Assembly (NCBI GenBank): GCA_963780185.1
Contig: CAWABA010000001.1
Location: 192,001-256,000 of the forward strand
Source: Candidatus Bathyarchaeota archaeon
Lineage (GTDB): Archaea > Thermoproteota > Bathyarchaeia > Bathyarchaeales > Bathycorpusculaceae
Length of the DNA stretch: 64,000 nucleotides
Direction: 5' to 3'
This document shows, piece by piece, positions 4,036 through 36,157 of this stretch (the stretch's first letter is position 1; every line of letters begins with the position of its first letter). The position numbers were made by a program, and so were the translations under genes. A model generated the notes under the pieces. That model had not been told where the DNA came from. It saw only the letters and a program-made list of their open reading frames with translations, and did not search any database.

Positions 4036-4042
4036 ACTTAGG

Positions 4043-4075
4043 CTATTTCACCGCTATGCAGTTTTAAGTTTTTGC
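4043..4075 (-). promoter_or_regulatory. Repeated promoter module, copy upstream of the nuclease ORF
   Basis: Minus strand GCAAAAACTTAAAACTGCATAGCGGTGAAATAG: BRE/TATA-like AAAAACTTAAA plus the conserved CTGCATAGCG. Confidence 0.65.
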
Positions 4076-4096
4076 ATCACTAAAAAATTAAAAGGG

Positions 4097-4285
4097 CTAT
4101 TTTTTCAGGAATAGTCCAAATATGAGTGTTATGAACGCAATGAACCAAAGTGCTATTCCGAGCCAATAAAATGTATTCATTTGATTGCTTATTGAACCTG
4201 ATATGACTCTTGTCCAACAGCCATAATATATCTCGGTCAGTATCGCCCCGAGCATGATTATTATTAAGCTGATTTTTAGCAACAT
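4097..4285 (-). CDS. Small two-helix membrane protein
   Basis: 62 aa with two hydrophobic stretches. SD-like TGAGGTGA and the repeated module lie upstream. Confidence 0.55.
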   Translation of the reverse strand: MLLKISLIIIMLGAILTEIYYGCWTRVISGSISNQMNTFYWLGIALWFIAFITLIFGLFLKK

Positions 4286-4775: not shown

Positions 4776-6140
4776 TTAACCTGTTGAATTCTTCACAAGT
4801 TGGTTAGCACTAAACATTAAGGCATCTTTATCGGTGAGGACGTCGAATCCTAATTTTGAGAAAAGCACAAACTTGACAGGTTTCTTGGTCACTGCAACCG
4901 CTTGGGCAGACTCTTTTAACCAGTTTAGTTCTCGCTGTCCCACTTTCTGCTGGGTCCACTTGCACTCACCAACGTAGATGGCTTTGTCAGTTTCTATGAC
5001 CAGATCAATCTCGCGTTGCTCAGAGCGCCCATTAACTTTCACTGCACCCCACCACTTACCAGCTGCTAGCAGCCTCTCGCCTCGCGCAATCAAGAATTCA
5101 CACAGAAACTGCCGACACAACATCTCAAAACGCTTACCAATAAACGAACTTAACTCTTCTGTACGTGGTGCAGATAGCTTTCCATAGACCTCCGAAAACC
5201 AAAAGGCAAGCGTGTTATCCACAATAAAATACAGTCCCTTCTTGCTTCTGGCAGGTTTTTCTCCGAAAGGAACAATGCGCTCAACAATTTTGAAGTCATG
5301 TATAAGAGCACTCAAATACTTAGTCAAAGTCGTCGAGCGAACGCCAACTTTCTGCGATATTTCATTCAAAGAAACGTAACCTGCGCTAATTGCCTCTAAA
5401 ACGGCATAATACTTCGCGTAAGCGTTTCCAAACTCCTGCCTTAGGACATTTTCGCCTTCTTCCTTAAGCTGTGCACCGACATCAAAGAACAGAGAATTCA
5501 CTGCGCTTTCAAAAGAACGGTTCTCAAGCTTTTCCAAAAGGACATAGTAAAAGGGGACACCGCCAAAAACACAGTAAAAACTCACCTGCTCAGAAGGCAG
5601 CAAAACACCAAAATCACTCAAAATATCCGCAACAGTCCCAAACGAAAGCTGCCCAAGATTTATCGCCGATGTAGCACGATTAAAAAGAGGCGCTTTCTTA
5701 GCGGCAAAAAGACGATTCATCATCCCTGCATAAGACCCAGAAACAACAAGCATAACATCCTTGGAATCCTTGTACTTATCCCATAACCTTTGCAACTCAT
5801 AAGGAACCGCTTCATTCACAACGAGAACATTAGAAAACTCGTCCAAACATAAAAGACCGACATTTTGCTCAAAAAGATACTCGAAAGCATCCTTCAAAGA
5901 AGCAAAAGATGGAGAGTACCCCAACTTAAGCCGAATCTCTGCTTCAACGTCGCCAGCAACCTGCTTCTCCTCTTTAGGAACTATAAGCACGCTTATTGCC
6001 TTTTTATCCTTGACAAACTCGTCGATAAGGCGGCTTTTCCCTATTCGCCGCCTGCCGCTGACAACAATAAAGTCGGAGCCTGACCTCAAATAAGCCTTCT
6101 CTAAAGCCTCAAGCTCTATTTCCCTATCATAGAACCTCAT
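4776..6140 (-). CDS. Archaeal AAA ATPase with wHTH and C-terminal DUF234 PD-(D/E)XK domain
   Basis: FYDRE start, GRRRIGKS Walker A, LCLDEF Walker B, GGVPFY, C-terminal EIDLV…GECKW. Confidence 0.9.
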   Translation of the reverse strand: MRFYDREIELEALEKAYLRSGSDFIVVSGRRRIGKSRLIDEFVKDKKAISVLIVPKEEKQVAGDVEAEIRLKLGYSPSFASLKDAFEYLFEQNVGLLCLDEFSNVLVVNEAVPYELQRLWDKYKDSKDVMLVVSGSYAGMMNRLFAAKKAPLFNRATSAINLGQLSFGTVADILSDFGVLLPSEQVSFYCVFGGVPFYYVLLEKLENRSFESAVNSLFFDVGAQLKEEGENVLRQEFGNAYAKYYAVLEAISAGYVSLNEISQKVGVRSTTLTKYLSALIHDFKIVERIVPFGEKPARSKKGLYFIVDNTLAFWFSEVYGKLSAPRTEELSSFIGKRFEMLCRQFLCEFLIARGERLLAAGKWWGAVKVNGRSEQREIDLVIETDKAIYVGECKWTQQKVGQRELNWLKESAQAVAVTKKPVKFVLFSKLGFDVLTDKDALMFSANQLVKNSTG

Positions 6141-16969: not shown

Positions 16970-17053
16970 ATGTCTAATCTCGCAAACAAAAAAGCAAACG
17001 TTGCATCATGGTTCCAGAGCTTCGACTACTTTTATTATAGTTATTTTCCTTAA
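16970..17053 (+). CDS. Putative aromatic-amino-acid leader peptide (27 aa)
   Basis: MSNLANKKANVASWFQSFDYFYYSYFP*. 9 of the last 14 codons are Trp/Phe/Tyr (1 W, 4 F, 4 Y). It lies directly upstream of the aromatic biosynthesis operon. Confidence 0.75.
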   Translation: MSNLANKKANVASWFQSFDYFYYSYFP

Positions 17054-17091
17054 GCCCAGAACTCAGAAAATTTTTTAGTGAAGTTCTGGGC
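17054..17091 (+). promoter_or_regulatory. Hairpin immediately after the leader stop (candidate attenuator)
   Basis: GCCCAGAACT (17054-63) pairs perfectly with AGTTCTGGGC (17082-91). A T6 tract lies in the loop (17071-76). Confidence 0.7.
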
Positions 17092-28185: not shown

Positions 28186-28997
28186 TCAGATGACTCTGGG
28201 GTAGGATCCCAGGATTTTCACGAACGTCGCGTATTTTTCCAGGGCTTCCAAGGCTTCTGCGCAGCGTTTTTCGGTTCGGTGCCCCTCAAAGTCGAGGTAA
28301 AAGTTGTATTGCCACGCAGTGGTTTTGGTGGGTCTGGATTCGATTTTGGTTAGGTTGATGTTTCTTGATGCGAACTCGCTGAGGGCGTGGTAGAGGGTTC
28401 CGGGGCGTGTTTGGCTGAGAATATGATTGAGGTTTTGTCGTCGCCTGTGGGGGCTGCATCTTCGTGGCCGAGGACAAGAAACCGAGTGTAGTTTGATGGG
28501 TTATCGGCGATGTCTCGGGCAAGAATCTTCATGCTGTAGAGGTCTGCGGCTTTTTCGCTTGCGATGGCGGCAGCGTTTGTGAGGTTTTTTTCTTTAATGA
28601 TTTTTACGGCTCCAGCGGTATCGTAAGCGGGGATGATTTCCCACTTGTGCCTTTCAAGGTATTTGCGGCATTGCGCTAACGCTTGGGGATGCGAGTAAAC
28701 TGTTTCGATGTCCTCGATTTTGGTGTCTGGGTTGCCGATTAGGACATGGGCAAGTTTTACTGCGACTTCACCGCAGACTTTGAGGTCATAAGTGAGGAAT
28801 AGGTCGTAGTTTTGGTTGACGCTGCCCTCGATAGAGTTCTCAATCGGAACCACGCCATGGGGAACAACACCTGTTTTTACGGATTCGAAGACATCGCGGA
28901 AATCTTTGCAGGGAACTGGCTCTACTTTGCTGCCGAAAAACTTGTAGACAGCCATTTCACTGTAAGCGCCAGTTTCACCCTGATATGCTACTTTCAC
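28186..28997 (-). CDS. pheA: Prephenate dehydratase with ACT domain (indels in the 3' part)
   Basis: YQGETGAYSE, PIENSIEGSV, SHPQALAQC, NYTRF. The downstream frame ends …KILGSYPRVI* at 28186. Confidence 0.92.
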
Positions 28998-30505
28998 TGT
29001 TTGTTTCCCCGATTGTGACTCTTAAGCAAAAGCTTGTTTATACCGTTTATCATCGCTTCGACGCTTGCCATCACGATGTCTTCTCTTGCCGCCCTCGCCG
29101 AAACCAAATTGCCTTTCTCATCCTCCACTTTAATGATGACTTCTGCAACAGCGTTTGAGCCGCCCGTAATGGCTTCAAGACGGTACTCTCGGAGACGGAT
29201 GTTTTCTTGGCTGCTGATTAGCTTCTGAATTGCTTTTAGAACCGCGTCAACTGGACCTACACCTGTTTCTGCGGCAATGTATTCTTTCCCATCCAGAATC
29301 AGCCGCACTGAAGCCGTTGGGATAACTTTGATGCCGGTGACCACTGCCATGTCGCATAAGGAAACGATTTTCTGTTCCCGACTTCGCCTATAACCGCAGA
29401 GGTCAACGCCAGCAAGTCCGCGTCCGTGACCATTTTGCCTTTGTCGCCAAGTTCCTTGACGCGTTGGACGATTTCTTTGAGTTGCTCCTCCGTTGGGTGA
29501 ATGCCGACTTCTTCCAGCTCCGCTTTGATGCCGCGTGTCCCCGCCAGTTTCCCAGCTACAAGTTTTCTTGTGCGGCCAACCAACGCGGGGTCTATCGGTT
29601 CAAAGGTTAGGGGTTTCTCGGTTACTCCGCGGGTGTGGATGCCTGATTCATGTGCGAAAGCGTTTTCGCCGACCAGCGCCTTGTTAGCCTGCACGGCGAT
29701 GCCTGTTAACGTTGAAACCATGCGGGATGTGCTGTAGAGTAGTCGGCTGTTTACGCCTGTCTTGTACTTGTAAATTACCTGCAGCGCCATAACCACTTCT
29801 TCCAGCGAAGCGTTACCTGCCCGCTCGCCCAACCCGTTGACGGCAACATGCACTTGCACAGCGCCCGCTTCCACGGCAGCCAACGAGTTTGCGACTGCCA
29901 ACCCGAAGTCGTCGTGGCAGTGAATGCTAATCGGCGTCTTGACGACGGATTTGATTTCTTCAACGAATTTGATGGTTGATTTCGGAATCATGATGCCTAC
30001 GGTGTCAGGCAAGTTGAGGCTGTCCATTCCTGCTTTTTCTGCAGCTTGGCAAACCTGTTTTAGAAAAGGCATTTCGGAACGTGTGGCATCCATGGGTGAA
30101 AACTCGCATTTTACCCCATGCGCCTTCACGTACTCAATCGACTCAACCGCTGAAGCCAACACTTGCTCAGGTGTCAAGTTGACGGCGTACTTCATCTGCA
30201 CTGGCAGAGGTCGGGATGAAAACGTGGATTAAGTCAACGTCGCAGTCCAGCGCCGCGTCAATGTCGCCTTTTGTCGCTCGGGAAAGGGCGCAGATTTCAG
30301 AATTCAAGCCCAGCTTGGCAATTTCTTTAACGACTTTTTTTTCGCCGTCAGAGGAACTTGGAAAACCCGCTTCGATAACGTCAACGCCCAGTTTGCCTAG
30401 TTGGCGTGCGATCTCAATTTTGTCTTCAGGGGTTAAAGAAACCCCGGGGGTTTGTTCGCCGTCTCTTAGGGTGGTGTCTAAAATCCGTATGTATTTTCCC
30501 GTCAT
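28994..30505 (-). CDS. leuA: 2-isopropylmalate/citramalate synthase family (three ORF pieces)
   Basis: [31 protein letters not shown]-terminal regulatory domain GVGPVDA. LeuA versus CimA cannot be resolved here. Confidence 0.85.
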
Positions 30506-30509
30506 TTTT

Positions 30510-31548
30510 TCAGCCAGTTTTCACTGTTAAGGCTGCAGCAATGGCTTCCGCCATTCCCACGGTCGTTGTGTTGCCGCCGCAGTCTGGAACAGTTTGACCG
30601 TTACGTAACGCGTAAATTACGCCGTTCTCGATTGCTGCGCCTGCCTGCATGCATTTTTTGTCGTTGTATTTTTCGCCAAGCCACTCCAGCATCATTTTCG
30701 CGCTAAGAACCATCGAAATCGGGTTTGCTGTGTGTTTTCCTTCCCTGTTTGGCGCTGAACCATGGATGGGTTCGAAGAGTGCGAAGTTGTCGCCTAAGTT
30801 TGCGCCTGGAGCCATGCCTAAGCCGCCGATTAGTTGGGCTGCTTCGTCTGAGAGGATGTCGCCGAACATGTTGCATGTGCAGAACACATCGAATATCTGC
30901 GGCTCCTTGATGAGCCGCATCGACGCTGCGTCAACGTACAGTTCGTTGAAGGCGATGTCTGGGTACTGCTTGGCTGTTTCGCGGCATACGCTGGCGAATA
31001 ACCCGTCGGTTACCCGCATAACGTTTGCTTTGTGGATTGCGGTGACTTTCTTTTTGCCGTTGCGTAGGCGCGCCATTTCGAAGGCTTTTTTGGCTATGCG
31101 TTCGCAGGCTTTGCGTGTTATGACCCTGATGCAGATGGTTGTGTTCGGGTCTAAGTGTGAATTCTAAGCCTTTGTAAACGTCCTCGGTGTTTTCCCTGAC
31201 CCACAGCATGTCAATGTCTGGTCTAGCAACTGGAACCGATGGGTAAGACTTGATCGGGCGCAGGTTCGCGTATAAATCGAACATCAACCTGAGTTTAACT
31301 ATGACGTCTGCTGCTGTTTCGCCGACTGGACCTTTCAGGCACGCGTGAGACGCCTTGATTATTTCTACGCTGTCCGCAGGAAGCGCCACGCCTCTTTTCG
31401 CTAAGGTGCCGTCGCCTGCTTCAGCCTCAATCATCTTCAGTTTTATGCCGAATTTTTTCTGCGCTGCCTCTAGAACTTTCAGGGTTGCTTCTGTTAGTTC
31501 TGGACCGATTCCGTCTCCTGGAATCAACGAAATTTTGTATTCAGTCAT
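30510..31548 (-). CDS. leuB: 3-isopropylmalate dehydrogenase family (indel near 31150)
   Basis: [43 protein letters not shown]. Confidence 0.88.
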
Positions 31549-32050
31549 TTCTTGTTCATTCTCCTACGCAAATTCTCGATTAATCCGCCGTCAACTAATA
31601 TCTCTAGGATAAATGGTGGCAGCTTCTCTACTTGAAACTTTTTGCCGTTGGAAACGTTTTCTATCTTGCCAGCTTCGAAATCCACCGCTAACTCGTCGCC
31701 TGTTTCAACCGCCGCCGATATGCCTTTGCATTCGATTACGGGCAAGCCGATGTTGATGGCGTTTCGGAAGAAGATCCGCGCGAAAGATTCAGCTAACACG
31801 CATTTTACGCCAGCGTACTTTAAGTGCTAGCGGTGCTTGTTCTCGGCTTGAGCCGCATCCGAAGTTTTTGCCGCCTACCACGATTACGCCTTTCTTTGGC
31901 TTTCTCGGGAAACTCTGGGTCTAAGCCTTCCAGTGCGTGTTTTGCCAGCTCATGAGGGTCAACCAGCATCAGGTATTGTCCAGGCAGGATGACGTCTGTG
32001 TCGATGTTGTTTCCGAATTTTATGGCTGGTCCTTTGATTTTCATGTTCAT
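31545..32050 (-). CDS. leuD: 3-isopropylmalate dehydratase small subunit (indel near 31890)
   Basis: [30 protein letters not shown]. Confidence 0.9.
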
Positions 32051-33422: not shown

Positions 33423-33935
33423 TTATTCGTCTATTCTTACCGATTTTGCCCCTCTTGCCAACGCTGTTATGCCTGTTCTTGCGAGTTCAATGACGCCTGT
33501 TGCCTTCATCAAGTTTAGGAACGCGTCGAGTTTGTCAGGTGTACCCGTGATTTCTATGGTTAGGCTGTCAGTGGAGACGTCGATGATTCGTCCGCGGAAG
33601 ACTTCTACGCAGTTTATGATGTCTGAGCGGTCTTTGGCGCTGGGAGAGTTAACTTTTATCAGTGCTAGTTCACGCATTACGTAGGTTCCGGGTTCCAGCT
33701 CTTCGACTTTGAGCACATCGATGAGTTTTGCAACTTGCTGGATGACTTGAATTATTGTTCTTTCATCCTCTTTGACTGTGATGGTCATACGCGCGATGTC
33801 TTTTCGCTCGCTTGGGCCAACCGTGATGCTTTCGATGTTAAAGTTTCTACGTCGGAACAGGTTTGAAACTGCGAAGAGGACACCTGGCTTGTTTTCGACA
33901 AGCACCGAAATTATTTTGGTTCTTCCAGGTTCCAT
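33423..33935 (-). CDS. ilvN: Acetolactate synthase small (regulatory) subunit
   Basis: SVLVENKPGVL, RRNFNIESITV, RELALIKV, ELARTG. Confidence 0.95.
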   Translation of the reverse strand: MEPGRTKIISVLVENKPGVLFAVSNLFRRRNFNIESITVGPSERKDIARMTITVKEDERTIIQVIQQVAKLIDVLKVEELEPGTYVMRELALIKVNSPSAKDRSDIINCVEVFRGRIIDVSTDSLTIEITGTPDKLDAFLNLMKATGVIELARTGITALARGAKSVRIDE

Positions 33936-35647
33936 CAGTAGTCACCTCTCTGTTGTGGCAAACCGCAGCCCGGCGGGACGAAGGGTACAACGTCGTGCTC
34001 GGAGCCTATTGGCACATCGATTACCGTGGTAACATTACTGGTAAGCGCTGTCTTAACTGCTTTGTGGAATTCCTCGATTGACGTCGCCCGTAGACCCTGC
34101 GCTCCGTAAGCCTCTGCCAACTTGACAAAGTCAGGTGTTTTGCCTAGGTCAATTGCCATGTAGCGGCGTTTGTAGAGCATTCGTTGCCACTGCGCCACCA
34201 TGCCCAGCACTGAATTGTTAAGCACTATGACGATGACGGGGATCTTTTCAGCTACGGAACACGCGAGTTCTTGCTCGGTCATTAGGAAACTGCCGTCGCC
34301 AGCTATGTCCACGACTGCTCTGTCTGGGCAAGCCACTTTTGCTCCTATAGCCGCTGGGAAACCAAAGCCCATGGTTCCAAGTCCGCCTGAACTGATGAAA
34401 GTTCTCGGCTTCAACGCTTGGAAGTATAGGGCTGACCACATTTGGTTTTGACCAACTTCGGTAGTGACGATGGTGTCCGCAGGTAACAGGTTTCTCAGCT
34501 CCATCAGCAGGGCTTTAGGCACTAAGTCTCTGGGTCTGTCTTTTAGCATTGGGCTTAACTGCTCTTTGGCTTCTCTAACACGCTTAGACCACAAGCTAAC
34601 TTTCATCCTTGGCAGCTTCTTTGTTGTAGCAGCCAGCAGATGCTTCAGCGACACTTTAGCGTCTCCAACGATTGGAACGTCAACTTCAATGTTCTTGCCG
34701 ATTTCCGCCGCATCAATGTCTATGTGAATCTTTTTGGCGTTGGGCGCAAAAGTGTCTAAATTGGCGGTTGCACGGTCAGAAAACCTTGTTCCAATGGCTA
34801 GCAGCACGTCGGCTTCGCCAATCAACCTGTTTGCAGCTGGGTTTCCATGCATCCCTATGCATCCAATTGACAGGGGGTGACATTCAGGAAAAGCGCCCTT
34901 ACCCATGAAAGTTGTCGCAACTGGCGCCATCAACAAATCTGACATCTGCATCAATTCGTCGGAGGCATTGGAAGAAATGACTCCGCCGCCAGCCAGAATC
35001 ATCGGGTATTCAGCCTCCGCCAGTAAATCCGCTGCCGCGCTGATTTTAGACAGGTCTGGCTCTAAGGCTGGTTTGTAGCCTCGGGCTTCGATTTTCTCTG
35101 TAATTCCCAGGTTTACTTCGGCGATGTCTGACTGCACGTTTTTAGGTATATCAATCAGGACTGGTCCAGGTCTGCCTGAGGACGCTATGTAGAATGCGGC
35201 GTTAACCATCGGTTGGATATCCGCGATGCTTCGCGGCTGATAATTATGCTTAGTGATGGGTGTGGTGATGCCGATGATGTCTGCTTCTTGGAAGGCGTCT
35301 CTGCCAATCATGTACGAAGAGTTGACGCCGCTAGAAGGAACCTGCCCTGTTATGGCTATCATCGGCGACGAATCCATAAACGCATTCGCGATTCCCGTAA
35401 CCAAGTTTGTCGCTCCAGGTCCCGACGTTGCCATGCAGACTCCTACTCGTCCGCTGGCTCTTGCGTAGCCTTCGGCGGCGTGTGCTGCTCCTTGCTCGTG
35501 TCTAGCGAGTATGTGCCTGATTTTCTCGTTGCCGCAGAGGGCATCGTACACTGGCAGTATGGCTCCGCCTAAGATGCCGAATATGACGTCGACGTTTTGT
35601 TTTTCAAGGGAATCTAAGAGTACTTTGGCTCCGCTCATTTTAGTCAT
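33935..35647 (-). CDS. ilvB: Acetolactate synthase large subunit
   Basis: RHEQGA, TSGPGATN, FQEAD, GRPGPV, GTMGFG, GDGSF…NNSVLGMV. Confidence 0.96.
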   Translation of the reverse strand: MTKMSGAKVLLDSLEKQNVDVIFGILGGAILPVYDALCGNEKIRHILARHEQGAAHAAEGYARASGRVGVCMATSGPGATNLVTGIANAFMDSSPMIAITGQVPSSGVNSSYMIGRDAFQEADIIGITTPITKHNYQPRSIADIQPMVNAAFYIASSGRPGPVLIDIPKNVQSDIAEVNLGITEKIEARGYKPALEPDLSKISAAADLLAEAEYPMILAGGGVISSNASDELMQMSDLLMAPVATTFMGKGAFPECHPLSIGCIGMHGNPAANRLIGEADVLLAIGTRFSDRATANLDTFAPNAKKIHIDIDAAEIGKNIEVDVPIVGDAKVSLKHLLAATTKKLPRMKVSLWSKRVREAKEQLSPMLKDRPRDLVPKALLMELRNLLPADTIVTTEVGQNQMWSALYFQALKPRTFISSGGLGTMGFGFPAAIGAKVACPDRAVVDIAGDGSFLMTEQELACSVAEKIPVIVIVLNNSVLGMVAQWQRMLYKRRYMAIDLGKTPDFVKLAEAYGAQGLRATSIEEFHKAVKTALTSNVTTVIDVPIGSEHDVVPFVPPGCGLPQQRGDY

Positions 35648-35743
35648 TTCATCGTTTCTCCTTTGTGAAAACTATACTCTCGTCTAAAGAAAGAAATGTT
35701 TGAAAATATTTGAGTGGCTGTTTCAGAGGGTTTCCTGGGTGAA

Positions 35744-35800
35744 TCAAAGAATAAGTACCCGACGATCCCAGCGATTGAGGTGACGATCCCTCATTTTCAT
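35744..35800 (-). CDS. Putative branched-chain amino acid leader peptide (18 aa, or 16 aa from the second ATG)
   Basis: MKMRDRHLNRWDRRVLIL*, ending GTA CTT ATT CTT TGA (Val-Leu-Ile-Leu), 96 nt upstream of ilvB. TATA-like TTTATTTTTAAG lies ~25-30 nt upstream, consistent with leaderless initiation. Confidence 0.62.
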   Translation of the reverse strand: MKMRDRHLNRWDRRVLIL

Positions 35801-35971
35801 GCCTCGTTAAATATTCCTTAAAAATAAACTGCTGAATCAATAAAAAGCTTGTGGTTAACGTTTAGTTGGATTCAATTTTTTGCGGGAAAAACCTTTTGTT
35901 TTTGGAGGTTTTTTCCTATTTTTTGGAAAGCCCTTATTACACAGAACAACTTTTTTCTTAGCTTGACCATT

Positions 35972-36157
35972 ATGTGCGAATTTAACGTTATTCTTGATGG
36001 AAAAACCCAGTTTAAAGATGTGATTTACGTTAAGGTTGACGGCGACAACGTGACGGTGAAGAACATTATGGGCGAATCAAAAGAGTTCAAAGGATGCAAA
36101 ATCACTGAGGTAGACGTCAACTACACTCGGCTGGTACTTGCGCGAGTAAAGCCCTAA
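35972..36157 (+). CDS. CooT-family nickel-binding protein
   Basis: MCE start and DVIYV…NIMGE…ITEVD pattern. TATA-like GAAAGCCCTTATTA ~30 nt upstream. Confidence 0.78.
   Translation: MCEFNVILDGKTQFKDVIYVKVDGDNVTVKNIMGESKEFKGCKITEVDVNYTRLVLARVKP

Follow-up and report, generated by a model that had tools for sequence, protein, structure and literature searches.

Organization of the ilvB leader

The minus-strand leader of ilvB, the gene for the acetolactate synthase large subunit, was examined together with the gene itself in a 64,000-nucleotide (nt) stretch of DNA from a Bathyarchaeia archaeon, the whole of which is called the window below. The leader contains a short upstream open reading frame (uORF; ORF, open reading frame) whose start region is, as judged by comparison with relatives, a real and conserved element, and this conserved upstream reading frame comes with its own ribosome-binding site, so that the leader element before ilvB is probably regulatory. 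The genes follow in the order ilvB, ilvN, leuC, leuD, leuB, leuA and pheA, for which NCBIfam names ilvB, ilvN, leuC (at family level), leuB, leuA and pheA, with leuD lying between leuC and leuB. The ilvBN-leuCDBA operon recognised in an earlier reading of the letters alone (the sequence-only reading) is borne out, with pheA in addition, and the minus-strand sequence features which that reading described were all found in place. The ilvB start at 35647 is confirmed by the IlvB homologues, which among the 120 matches listed mostly begin MTKMSGA... The features of the leader are as follows (SD, Shine-Dalgarno sequence; BRE, transcription factor B recognition element).

35774-35794, minus strand: most conserved block, ATGAGGGATCGTCACCTCAAT, with the inverted repeat TGAGG-N8-CCTCA and the start codon within the hairpin
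35802-35805, minus strand: SD-like GAGG, 7 nt before ATG 35794
35744-35794, minus strand: uORF MRDRHLNRWDRRVLIL and its stop TGA, with a start conserved in relatives
35790-35782 and 35769-35761, minus strand: direct repeat GGGATCGTC, two copies 21 nt apart
35840-35850, minus strand: BRE/TATA-like element AAGCTTTTTAT, kept in relatives, predicted leader promoter
35817-35828, minus strand: second TATA-like element TTTATTTTTAAG, the one named in the sequence-only reading
35686-35698, minus strand: pyrimidine tract CAUUUCUUUCUUU, with its complement in the ilvB translation initiation region (35657-35645)
35644-35661, minus strand: ilvB SD GGAG (35661-35658), mini-ORF ATG AAA TGA (35652-35644) and ilvB ATG (35647-35645)
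33935-35647, minus strand: ilvB (TIGR00118, 746 bits against a cut-off of 538)

The uORF had been described as running from 35800 to 35744, and both the ATG at 35800 and the in-frame ATG at 35794 are indeed present with the stop TGA at 35746-35744; the longer form adds MK and reads MKMRDRHLNRWDRRVLIL. The codons for V-L-I-L occupy 35758-35747, and a spacer of 96 nt separates the uORF stop from the ilvB start. The repeat GGGATCGTC, rightly said to occur twice in the leader, reads Gly-Ile-Val both times in the +1 frame.

A conserved start motif with a ribosome-binding site

Relatives of the locus came from one IlvB-based scan of genome contigs, which returned 80 loci. The closest are Bathyarchaeia, with IlvB identities to the window of 79% (L001 and L002), 63% (L035), 61% (L040) and 54% (L046), and the remaining loci of the 80 are other archaea and bacteria at 42-56%. 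The Bathyarchaeia DNA sample thus comprises six ilvB leaders and one leader of the citramalate synthase gene (cimA), of which the window and L002 are closely related. The window, L001 and L002 are the only three sequences that could be aligned, and the three-way alignment consists of these; a five-sequence MAFFT alignment misplaced L035 and L040 and was set aside.

An SD and the start motif RTG-RGG-KAT precede ilvB in all six Bathyarchaeia sequences. In L001, L002, L035 and L040 the form RTGAGGGAT is found on the sense strand at 150-185 nt before ilvB; the window has it once against 0.44 expected, and L046 carries two copies of the variant ATGGGGTAT. Across eight copies the core is invariant at eight columns, and the start codon is embedded in the larger motif RUG-RGG-KAU-YG...UCAAY. 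The SD-like sequence, which is GAGG, GGAGG or GGGG, stands 5-9 nt before the conserved start in 6/6 leaders, compared with a background of SD-like tetramers before about 10% of the ATG and GTG codons of the window and before 14 of 32 putative gene starts. In the alignment of the window with L001 and L002, the stretch from ATG to AAT is invariant at 19 of its 21 positions, and the best-conserved block of the region is ATGAGGGATYGYCACCTCAAT, which exceeds even the first 30 codons of ilvB. A match to RTGAGGGAT 213 nt upstream of a bacterial ilvB in L016 is treated as chance because it falls at the end of the ORF before it and the remainder of the motif is missing. Nine other loci have a match elsewhere, and L016 has a further one at 1247.

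The sequence-only reading had placed a TATA-like element before the uORF. The sequence it named, TTTATTTTTAAG, is present at 35828-35817, but it is shared with L002 only (there as TATTTTTTAAG), and the element kept among relatives is AAGCTTTTTAT instead, which in the form A[AG]G[CG]TTTTTAT precedes the conserved start by 46-63 nt in the window, L001, L002 and L046. We therefore regard AAGCTTTTTAT as the probable promoter of the leader transcript, with a predicted transcription start about 25 nt downstream, in which case the SD would fall inside the transcript. If TTTATTTTTAAG were used, the transcript would start at about ATG 35794 and hence be leaderless. The GGGATCGTC repeat is likewise shared with L002 only, and L046 duplicates its own motif at a distance of 42 nt.

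That the uORF is a chance ORF in an AT-rich intergenic region has in its favour that 16-codon ORFs are common and that the fold, helices and U runs of the leader stay at chance level (see below). We nevertheless consider this very improbable, since six genomes keep the SD and start motif, of which a second copy precedes cimA, and the start-motif patterns are expected just 0.24-0.44 times per window.

Between the uORF and ilvB, a 32-codon ORF (35649-35747, minus strand) shares bases with its neighbours at both ends: its TTG start overlaps the uORF stop (TTGA), and its TGA overlaps the ATG of the mini-ORF. A relay along this chain, from the uORF by TGA/TTG to the 32-codon ORF, by ATGA to the mini-ORF and by ATGA to ilvB, was rejected as chance because L002 lacks the chain.

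A copy of the motif at cimA

A relaxed form of the motif also occurs in L002 at 2599, as ATGGGGTATTGCTTTATTCAACCGCTTCCCTAA, directly before the DTTLRDGEQ motif of cimA. The short ORF of this cimA leader (L002 2540-2650, plus strand) reads MGYCFIQPLP up to its stop, and the copy closely resembles the ilvB copies of L046. Present before both ilvB and cimA, the motif is thus a module common to two transcription units of the pathway, which would suit sensory short ORFs that form a family as well as a binding site for a shared regulator.

The DNA of the motif also surfaces in predicted CimA proteins. Among the matches listed, 73 of 120 CimA homologues show the N-terminal motif, and the other 47 predictions start further inside the gene. 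Of these 73, 36 are N-terminally extended with ..KWGIALFNRF[PS][KE].., which is the same DNA in the cimA frame; in 35 the start is MKFL, VKFL or MFL just ahead of DTT, and for the last 2 it is the DTT motif itself. Some of the extended N-termini are probably gene-caller artefacts, because some read through TATA-box-like sequence. Residue -6 is K, E, N or D in all 36 listed extended predictions; codons for these residues begin with AA or GA, a choice that would keep a UAA or UGA uORF stop just before the cimA start. The cimA frame of L002 has no canonical start codon upstream of DTTLRDGEQ. Homopolymer errors may affect L002, one being suspected because a 94%-identical CimA prediction implies one extra base in an A run.

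The similarity between the two leaders also raises an evolutionary explanation, namely that a duplicated cimA promoter and 5' end was recruited before ilvB as a remnant that supplies a promoter and ribosome loading but no sensing. In line with this, the L002 cimA 5' end is similar to the L046 ilvB leader and, more weakly, to that of the window, the +1-frame peptide of L046 resembles a predicted CimA N-terminal extension, and no significant RNA switch was found in the leaders. However, a functionless remnant should decay, whereas the start block outlasts the 5' coding region of ilvB although the IlvB proteins are 54-79% identical, and we judge this origin, as a full account of the element, to be improbable.

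Peptides encoded by the short ORF

The short ORF is open from the conserved start in every copy and measures 8-19 codons across the eight copies. The peptides before ilvB are:

Window: MRDRHLNRWDRRVLIL
L002: MRDCHLNSWDRRVLFL, ending VLFL
L001: (V)RDRHLNAVFVRRFVQSIL, ending QSIL
L040: MRDNVLWRNSFIGELY, ending GELY
L035: (V)RDSRVRRNRFLSR, ending FLSR
L046: MGYRFILS, ending FILS, and MGYCFVNPRAEGA

Codon 6 specifies isoleucine, leucine or valine (I/L/V) in 8/8 copies, via four different codons. The last four residues are I/L/V at 13 of 24 positions (p 0.0017), or 10 of 20 when L002 is left out (p 0.012), against a background of 24.4% taken from the long ORFs of the window. The V-L-I-L ending, on which the sequence-only reading had built its case, is present and rare, four I/L/V residues at the end being found in 5 of the 1566 small ORFs of the window (8-45 amino acids), but the run is not kept in relatives; their ends differ, and V-L-I-L is therefore specific to the window, with a weakened form in L002. 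The comparison of ilvB upstream regions that the same reading had proposed thus returned the uORF start, the SD and an I/L/V-enriched end, though not the run itself.

Leader ORFs of the aro cluster and of other archaea

The same genome holds a second short ORF that ends in codons for the end products of the pathway directly downstream. This aro uORF runs on the plus strand from 16970 (ATG) or 16949 (TTG) to a TAA at 17053 and ends in SWFQSFDYFYYSYFP. Nine of its last 14 residues are phenylalanine, tryptophan or tyrosine, a content reached in 0 of 2000 shuffles and in 1 of the 1566 small ORFs. A perfect 10-bp hairpin with T6 in its loop (17054-17091) follows directly and is succeeded by an SD and the ATG (17110) of an aspartate kinase gene, the first gene of the aro cluster. 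The aro uORF is a much stronger leader-peptide candidate than the ilvB uORF, as the sequence-only reading had ranked them; it differs in its stronger composition, in the hairpin that follows at once and in lacking the RTG-RGG-KAT motif.

I/L/V-rich uORFs directly precede ilvB in other archaea as well, namely in Archaeoglobi and a DHVE2 archaeon, with endings such as GVVILVGIIVVLL and LLLSVLVILLIIIVQ:

L007 (Archaeoglobus), about 4040-4160: 9 of the last ten residues I/L/V, 0 of 500 shuffles
L041 (DHVE2 lineage), about 4789-4900: 9 of the last ten residues I/L/V, 0 of 500 shuffles
L052, about 4908-4980: 7 of the last ten residues I/L/V, p 0.01

The uORFs of L007 and L041 are followed, ahead of the ilvB SD, by a short GC hairpin and a T6 run. 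The same test of the last ten residues was not significant in the Bathyarchaeia leaders and gave p 0.09-0.91 in L003, L044, L045, L048, L053 and L065. The I/L/V-rich archaeal uORFs could be attenuators or small membrane peptides.

A possible ribosome-mediated leader sensor

The reading we favour, tentatively and with somewhat less than even confidence, is that of a ribosome-mediated leader sensor of the ilvBN-leuCDBA(-pheA) mRNA, for which we infer translation of the uORF, stalling within it and a link to termination or to the ilvB ribosome-binding site. It draws on the SD and start kept in 6/6 leaders compared with the SD-like background of about 10%, on the I/L/V identity of codon 6 in 8/8 copies together with the I/L/V-enriched tail, and on the predicted sequestration of the ilvB ribosome-binding site in the window. 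In addition, the aromatic-rich aro uORF in the same genome raises the prior for such a sensor, and the I/L/V-rich uORFs before ilvB in other archaea are supportive of it. Further points in its favour are the strong conservation of the start block, the promoter-like element that would put the SD within the transcript, the rarity of small ORFs with four terminal I/L/V residues, the uORF stop implied by residue -6 of the extended CimA predictions, and the bacterial ilvB leader candidates of comparable size and I/L/V content.

Under this model, the conserved SD and AUG would serve as the ribosome entry site, and the advance of ribosomes over the I/L/V codons, namely codon 6 of each copy and, in the window, the V-L-I-L that precedes the stop, would report the supply of charged tRNA-Ile, tRNA-Leu and tRNA-Val. 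Stalling at the uORF end would hold the ribosome on the nascent leader, while a quickly terminating ribosome would leave about 96 nt of naked leader, which is U/C-rich, could pair through its pyrimidine tract with the ilvB ribosome-binding site and might be shortened by the archaeal U-tract/aCPSF1-FttA termination route. With a different outcome for the covered and the naked leader, the element would therefore act as a ribosome-mediated attenuator.

RNA structure, termination signals and composition

Several results weigh against a sensor of this kind. The predicted fold of the leader (-29.4 kcal/mol) has z = +1.03, 171 of 200 shuffles being at least as stable, and the values for L002 (-0.70) and L001 (-1.20) are not notable either. 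The nested pairings GAGGG/CCCUC and CUGGG/CCCAG described in the sequence-only reading do form in the minimum-energy fold, but no better than in shuffles, and the start/stop helix, tested against shuffles, gave p 0.135 for the window, with values of 0.37-0.84 for the remaining seven copies. RNAalifold, run on the three close leaders, proposes a 5-bp UGAGG/CCUCA hairpin with the start codon inside it, as well as a 4-bp helix that joins the SD to a CCUC after the uORF, and these two show no pair that changes on both sides; the consensus fold has 12 pairs, one of which changes on both sides, within a weak 3-pair inner helix. No hairpin-plus-T terminator was found on the minus strand between 35500 and 36100. 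T runs of at least four are at shuffle level, with two T4 in the window (p 0.56) and none in L046. The pyrimidine tract before the ilvB SD, also pointed out earlier, is present at 35698-35686, but as a terminator it does not rise above chance. Together with the ilvB initiation region it forms an inverted repeat with 13-nt arms that are 77% complementary, and the predicted unpaired probability of the ilvB SD is 0.11 in the window, 0.13 in L001, 0.47 in L002 and 0.62 in L035, so that sequestration is not conserved. In constrained folds of five leaders, a ribosome mask placed on the uORF start, the last codons or the stop left the accessibility of the ilvB SD unchanged.

The peptides speak against a sensor in their own way. 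Besides the loss of the V-L-I-L run in relatives, I/L/V residues over the whole peptides amount to 23/83, which is the background level (p 0.28), and the I/L/V density in 8-residue windows of any uORF is 4/8 for the window (p 0.77). The uORF lengths of 8-19 codons are those that random frames would be expected to give. The strongest compositional signal is arginine, with 21 of 83 residues against 4% (p 1e-11) and with AGA and CGA never used, and this excess is something that a sensor of branched-chain amino acids (BCAA) does not predict. The window and L002 differ at five positions inside the uORF; the two in the head (the first 12 codons) are silent in the +1 frame but replace one R by C and another by S in the uORF, and 2 of the 3 tail differences leave the uORF peptide unchanged. 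In the available part of the study by Seliverstov et al. (2005, PMC1262725), the replacement of candidate regulatory codons in the ilvB leader of Streptomyces coelicolor is said to have had no effect.

As such, the leader has the short 5'-leader ORF with initiation signals that a classical attenuator has, and neither an intrinsic terminator between the leader ORF and ilvB nor mutually exclusive ribosome-dependent helices were found. The archaeal analogue of attenuation put forward in the sequence-only reading thus retains a conserved short ORF with translation signals and an I/L/V-enriched end, but its helices and its terminator are unsupported. Rfam returned no match at the gathering score over the whole window, and the 11 matches between 35500 and 36100 (E 0.51-9.3) are all far below that score. 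Box C/D small RNAs, T-box-like tRNA pairing and anti-SD mimicry were dropped after inspection by eye, with no supporting match.

A regulator-binding site as an alternative

Conservation of the element lies at the nucleotide rather than the peptide level, which would fit a regulator-binding site as well as a leader peptide. The conserved motif may be a protein-regulator site of a BCAA regulon, either a DNA operator immediately downstream of the promoter or an RNA site at the mRNA 5' end, with the ATG and the ORF incidental; we think of this as a serious rival to the sensor, though rather unlikely. Such a site would account better for the nucleotide conservation, for the perfect TGAGG-N8-CCTCA, which is invariant in the window, L001 and L002, and for the phasing of the direct repeats, whose distances of 21 nt (window, L002) and 42 nt (L046) are whole helical turns. 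It is also in keeping with the random-looking uORF lengths and with the motif heading two pathway units, ilvB and cimA, at a similar distance from the TATA-like element, and the authors of PMC1262725, in the part of the article available, suspected likewise for the actinobacterial LEU element. It does not account for the SD-like sequence at the right spacing in 6/6 leaders, which an operator does not need, or for the I/L/V bias at codon 6 and in the tail. In addition, neither the inverted nor the direct repeats occur in L035, L040 or the cimA copy, and the proposal comes without a candidate regulator.

Archaeal amino-acid regulators with DNA operators are exemplified by TrpY and LysM. Like their operators, the motif lies just downstream of the TATA element, is shared within a pathway and has inverted and phased direct repeats; unlike them, it always carries an SD and a start codon and is without a known regulator.

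An open +1 frame

The leaders begin, in the +1 frame relative to the conserved ATG, with TGA or TGG followed by Gly-Ile-Val/Ala/Thr, and this frame is open over much of the leader:

Window, 35644-35790, minus strand: +1 frame relative to ATG 35794, reading GIVTSIAGIVGYLFFDSPRKPSETATQIFSNISFFRREYSFHKGETMK; open, stop TGA 35646-35644 overlaps the ilvB ATG (ATGA)
L002: open, stop overlaps an in-frame ilvB TTG, 2 nt before the ATG
L035: open, with a TAA that immediately precedes the ilvB ATG
L046: open, stop 8 nt inside ilvB
L040: open, stop 23 nt inside ilvB
L001: closes 31 nt short of ilvB

In dinucleotide shuffles, openness to within 8 nt has a probability of 0.04-0.20 per leader. Multiplied over the window, L040, L035 and L046 this comes to 3.7e-5, or to 1.1e-4 with the factor of three for the frames, a value that is nominal only because the frame was picked after looking and the lineages are related. 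As for starts in this frame, L046 has a TTG 7 nt after GGGG and L001 an ATG; L002 has none that is canonical, nor does the window before ATG 35652, where a TGA (35793-35791) stands directly upstream of the frame. This TGA occupies the place at which cimA and L046 have Trp. We regard the openness as a suggestive but unexplained observation, which may be a rival or a complement to the short uORF.

On this basis the functional frame could be a long +1-frame leader ORF of about 45-70 codons that starts with Gly-Ile-Val/Ala/Thr, ends on the ilvB start and couples ilvB translation, whereby ribosomes that cross the pyrimidine tract or pause there would open up the ilvB ribosome-binding site, having entered by a +1 shift or at a non-canonical start. 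It is favoured by the five leaders in which no stop interrupts the frame between the motif and a point at most 8 nt short of the ilvB ATG or beyond it, and by the openness product and the stops that overlap or abut the ilvB start in the window, L002, L035 and L046. Moreover, the variable sites of the motif are third positions in this frame (GGG/GGT and ATC/ATT/ATA, always Ile), peptide alignments score higher in it for 5 of 6 pairs, and the L046 ORF KWGIVLFCRRPKRLN resembles the predicted CimA N-terminal extension KWGIALFNRFPKRIN. The end of the window uORF, CUU UGA U, also resembles the RF2 frameshift site. Nevertheless, we consider a long ORF of this kind unlikely. The window and L002 have no ATG, GTG or TTG until the very end, a TGA stands at the Trp position in 5/6 leaders, L001 stops 31 nt short, and no conserved slippery site was found in the leaders inspected. 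Differences between the window and L002 are not periodic by codon position (16, 12, 20), the window and L001 align better in the ATG frame, no protein of 26-84 amino acids in the searched collection shares words with the peptide, and the post hoc choice of frame and the dependence of the lineages apply here as well. A +1 shift at the uORF stop was rejected, re-pairing of the P-site codon being available only in the window and the cimA copy and thus not conserved, and an N-terminally extended IlvB was rejected with such an extension in 0 of the 120 IlvB homologues listed.

The two frames can also be joined in a broader reading, which we hold to be possible though doubtful. In Bathyarchaeia, and independently in Archaeoglobi and DHVE2, translated leader ORFs would control amino acid operons without hairpin terminators, and the ilvB/cimA module would form a ribosome-read regulon decoded in two overlapping frames, with the choice of frame or pausing at I/L/V codons setting ilvB translation. 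The short frame would be that of about 16 codons, and the long +1 frame would run from its Gly-Ile-Val start across the tract opposite the ribosome-binding site and onto the ilvB start.

Comparison with known leader peptides

The enterobacterial leaders of ilvGMEDA, ilvBN and leu have a short 5' ORF before a BCAA operon, with I/L/V codons near its stop. The window leader shares with these attenuators the short 5'-leader ORF and the I/L/V codons close to the stop, but it has no detected hairpin-plus-U terminator or mutually exclusive helices, its uORF has only four or five I/L/V codons and a run that is not conserved, and its host is an archaeon.

The uORF scan for I/L/V density recovered short ORFs about 130-300 nt upstream of actinobacterial ilvB in L055, L057, L058, L060, L071, L072 and L078 (examples are MARILVLPERV, MARVLVLPQRAG and MRVDAALALLRA). 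In L060, L072 and L078 they have 11-16 codons, and among the actinobacterial candidates four-codon I/L/V runs are the norm. Candidate actinobacterial ilvB leader peptides have been described by Seliverstov et al. (PMC1262725), and to the extent of the text available these, together with the scan, support the sequence-only reading, which had pointed to such codon runs in the bacterial ilvL and leuL attenuators. Like the window uORF, these are very short ORFs with about four I/L/V codons flanked by arginines and are doubtful as true attenuators. They overlap terminator hairpins and U runs according to the available part of PMC1262725, whereas the window has none, and there is no sequence relationship between them.

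By analogy, the logic of the leader would lie nearer to leader peptides without a classical terminator, namely the tnaC type and the short Cys ORFs of mycobacteria, than to ilvL and leuL. In tnaC with Rho, a leader ORF acts without an intrinsic terminator. The leaderless polycysteine short ORFs of mycobacteria do likewise, as stated in the accessible part of the report (bioRxiv 10.1101/834739). As far as that part goes, the window leader has in common with these systems the sensing codons at the end of a short, possibly leaderless ORF, a downstream ribosome-binding site that is sequestered by leader RNA (predicted, in the window) and the occurrence of the same short ORF at several operons of one pathway (ilvB and cimA). 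It differs, on the same partial basis, in that its pyrimidine tract lies 48 nt past the uORF stop, beyond a ribosome stalled on V-L-I-L, in that its constrained folds show no effect of ribosome position, and in that its sensory run is far weaker than the mycobacterial Cys runs.

Archaea couple transcription and translation. Their termination involves U tracts and aCPSF1/FttA (PMC13675443, in the part available), and a ribosome-sensing leader would therefore need to differ from the textbook bacterial switch. In the available part of that 2026 review of termination across domains, the string 'attenuat' does not occur, and no description of leader-peptide or uORF control of archaeal amino acid biosynthesis was found in the openly accessible literature, subscription journals lying outside this search. 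If the broader reading is true, such leader ORFs would amount to an archaeal equivalent of bacterial attenuation that does not need hairpin terminators; if the motif is bound by a regulator, it would be the first BCAA-regulon cis-element for a class of archaea that is uncultured and abundant worldwide. The locus offers a compact conserved element, a second copy on a pathway gene and, within one and the same genome, the much stronger aro leader as a sister case, and thus the question could be tested with reporters in a tractable archaeon.

Reading frames and neighbouring features

Reading frames in the window call for caution, given visible frameshifts. Three genes of the operon are split on the minus strand into overlapping ORFs in different frames, namely leuD (31545-31799 and 31820-32050), leuB (30510-31076 and 30931-31548) and leuA (28994-29350, 29299-30201 and 30167-30505), which therefore point to assembly indels or decaying genes; several of the breaks sit at A runs. 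Some aro genes of the window also appear truncated. The ilv-leu operon is closed by an aromatic-pathway gene, pheA (prephenate dehydratase; 28350-28997, minus strand), which overlaps leuA by 4 nt.

On its other side, the leader occupies the gap between ilvB and a plus-strand cooT-like gene (35972-36157; PF10133). A plus-strand 13-bp hairpin with a T run (35884-35926) lies about 50 nt upstream of the cooT-like gene, and as no plus-strand gene precedes it, this hairpin may be a leader element of that gene.

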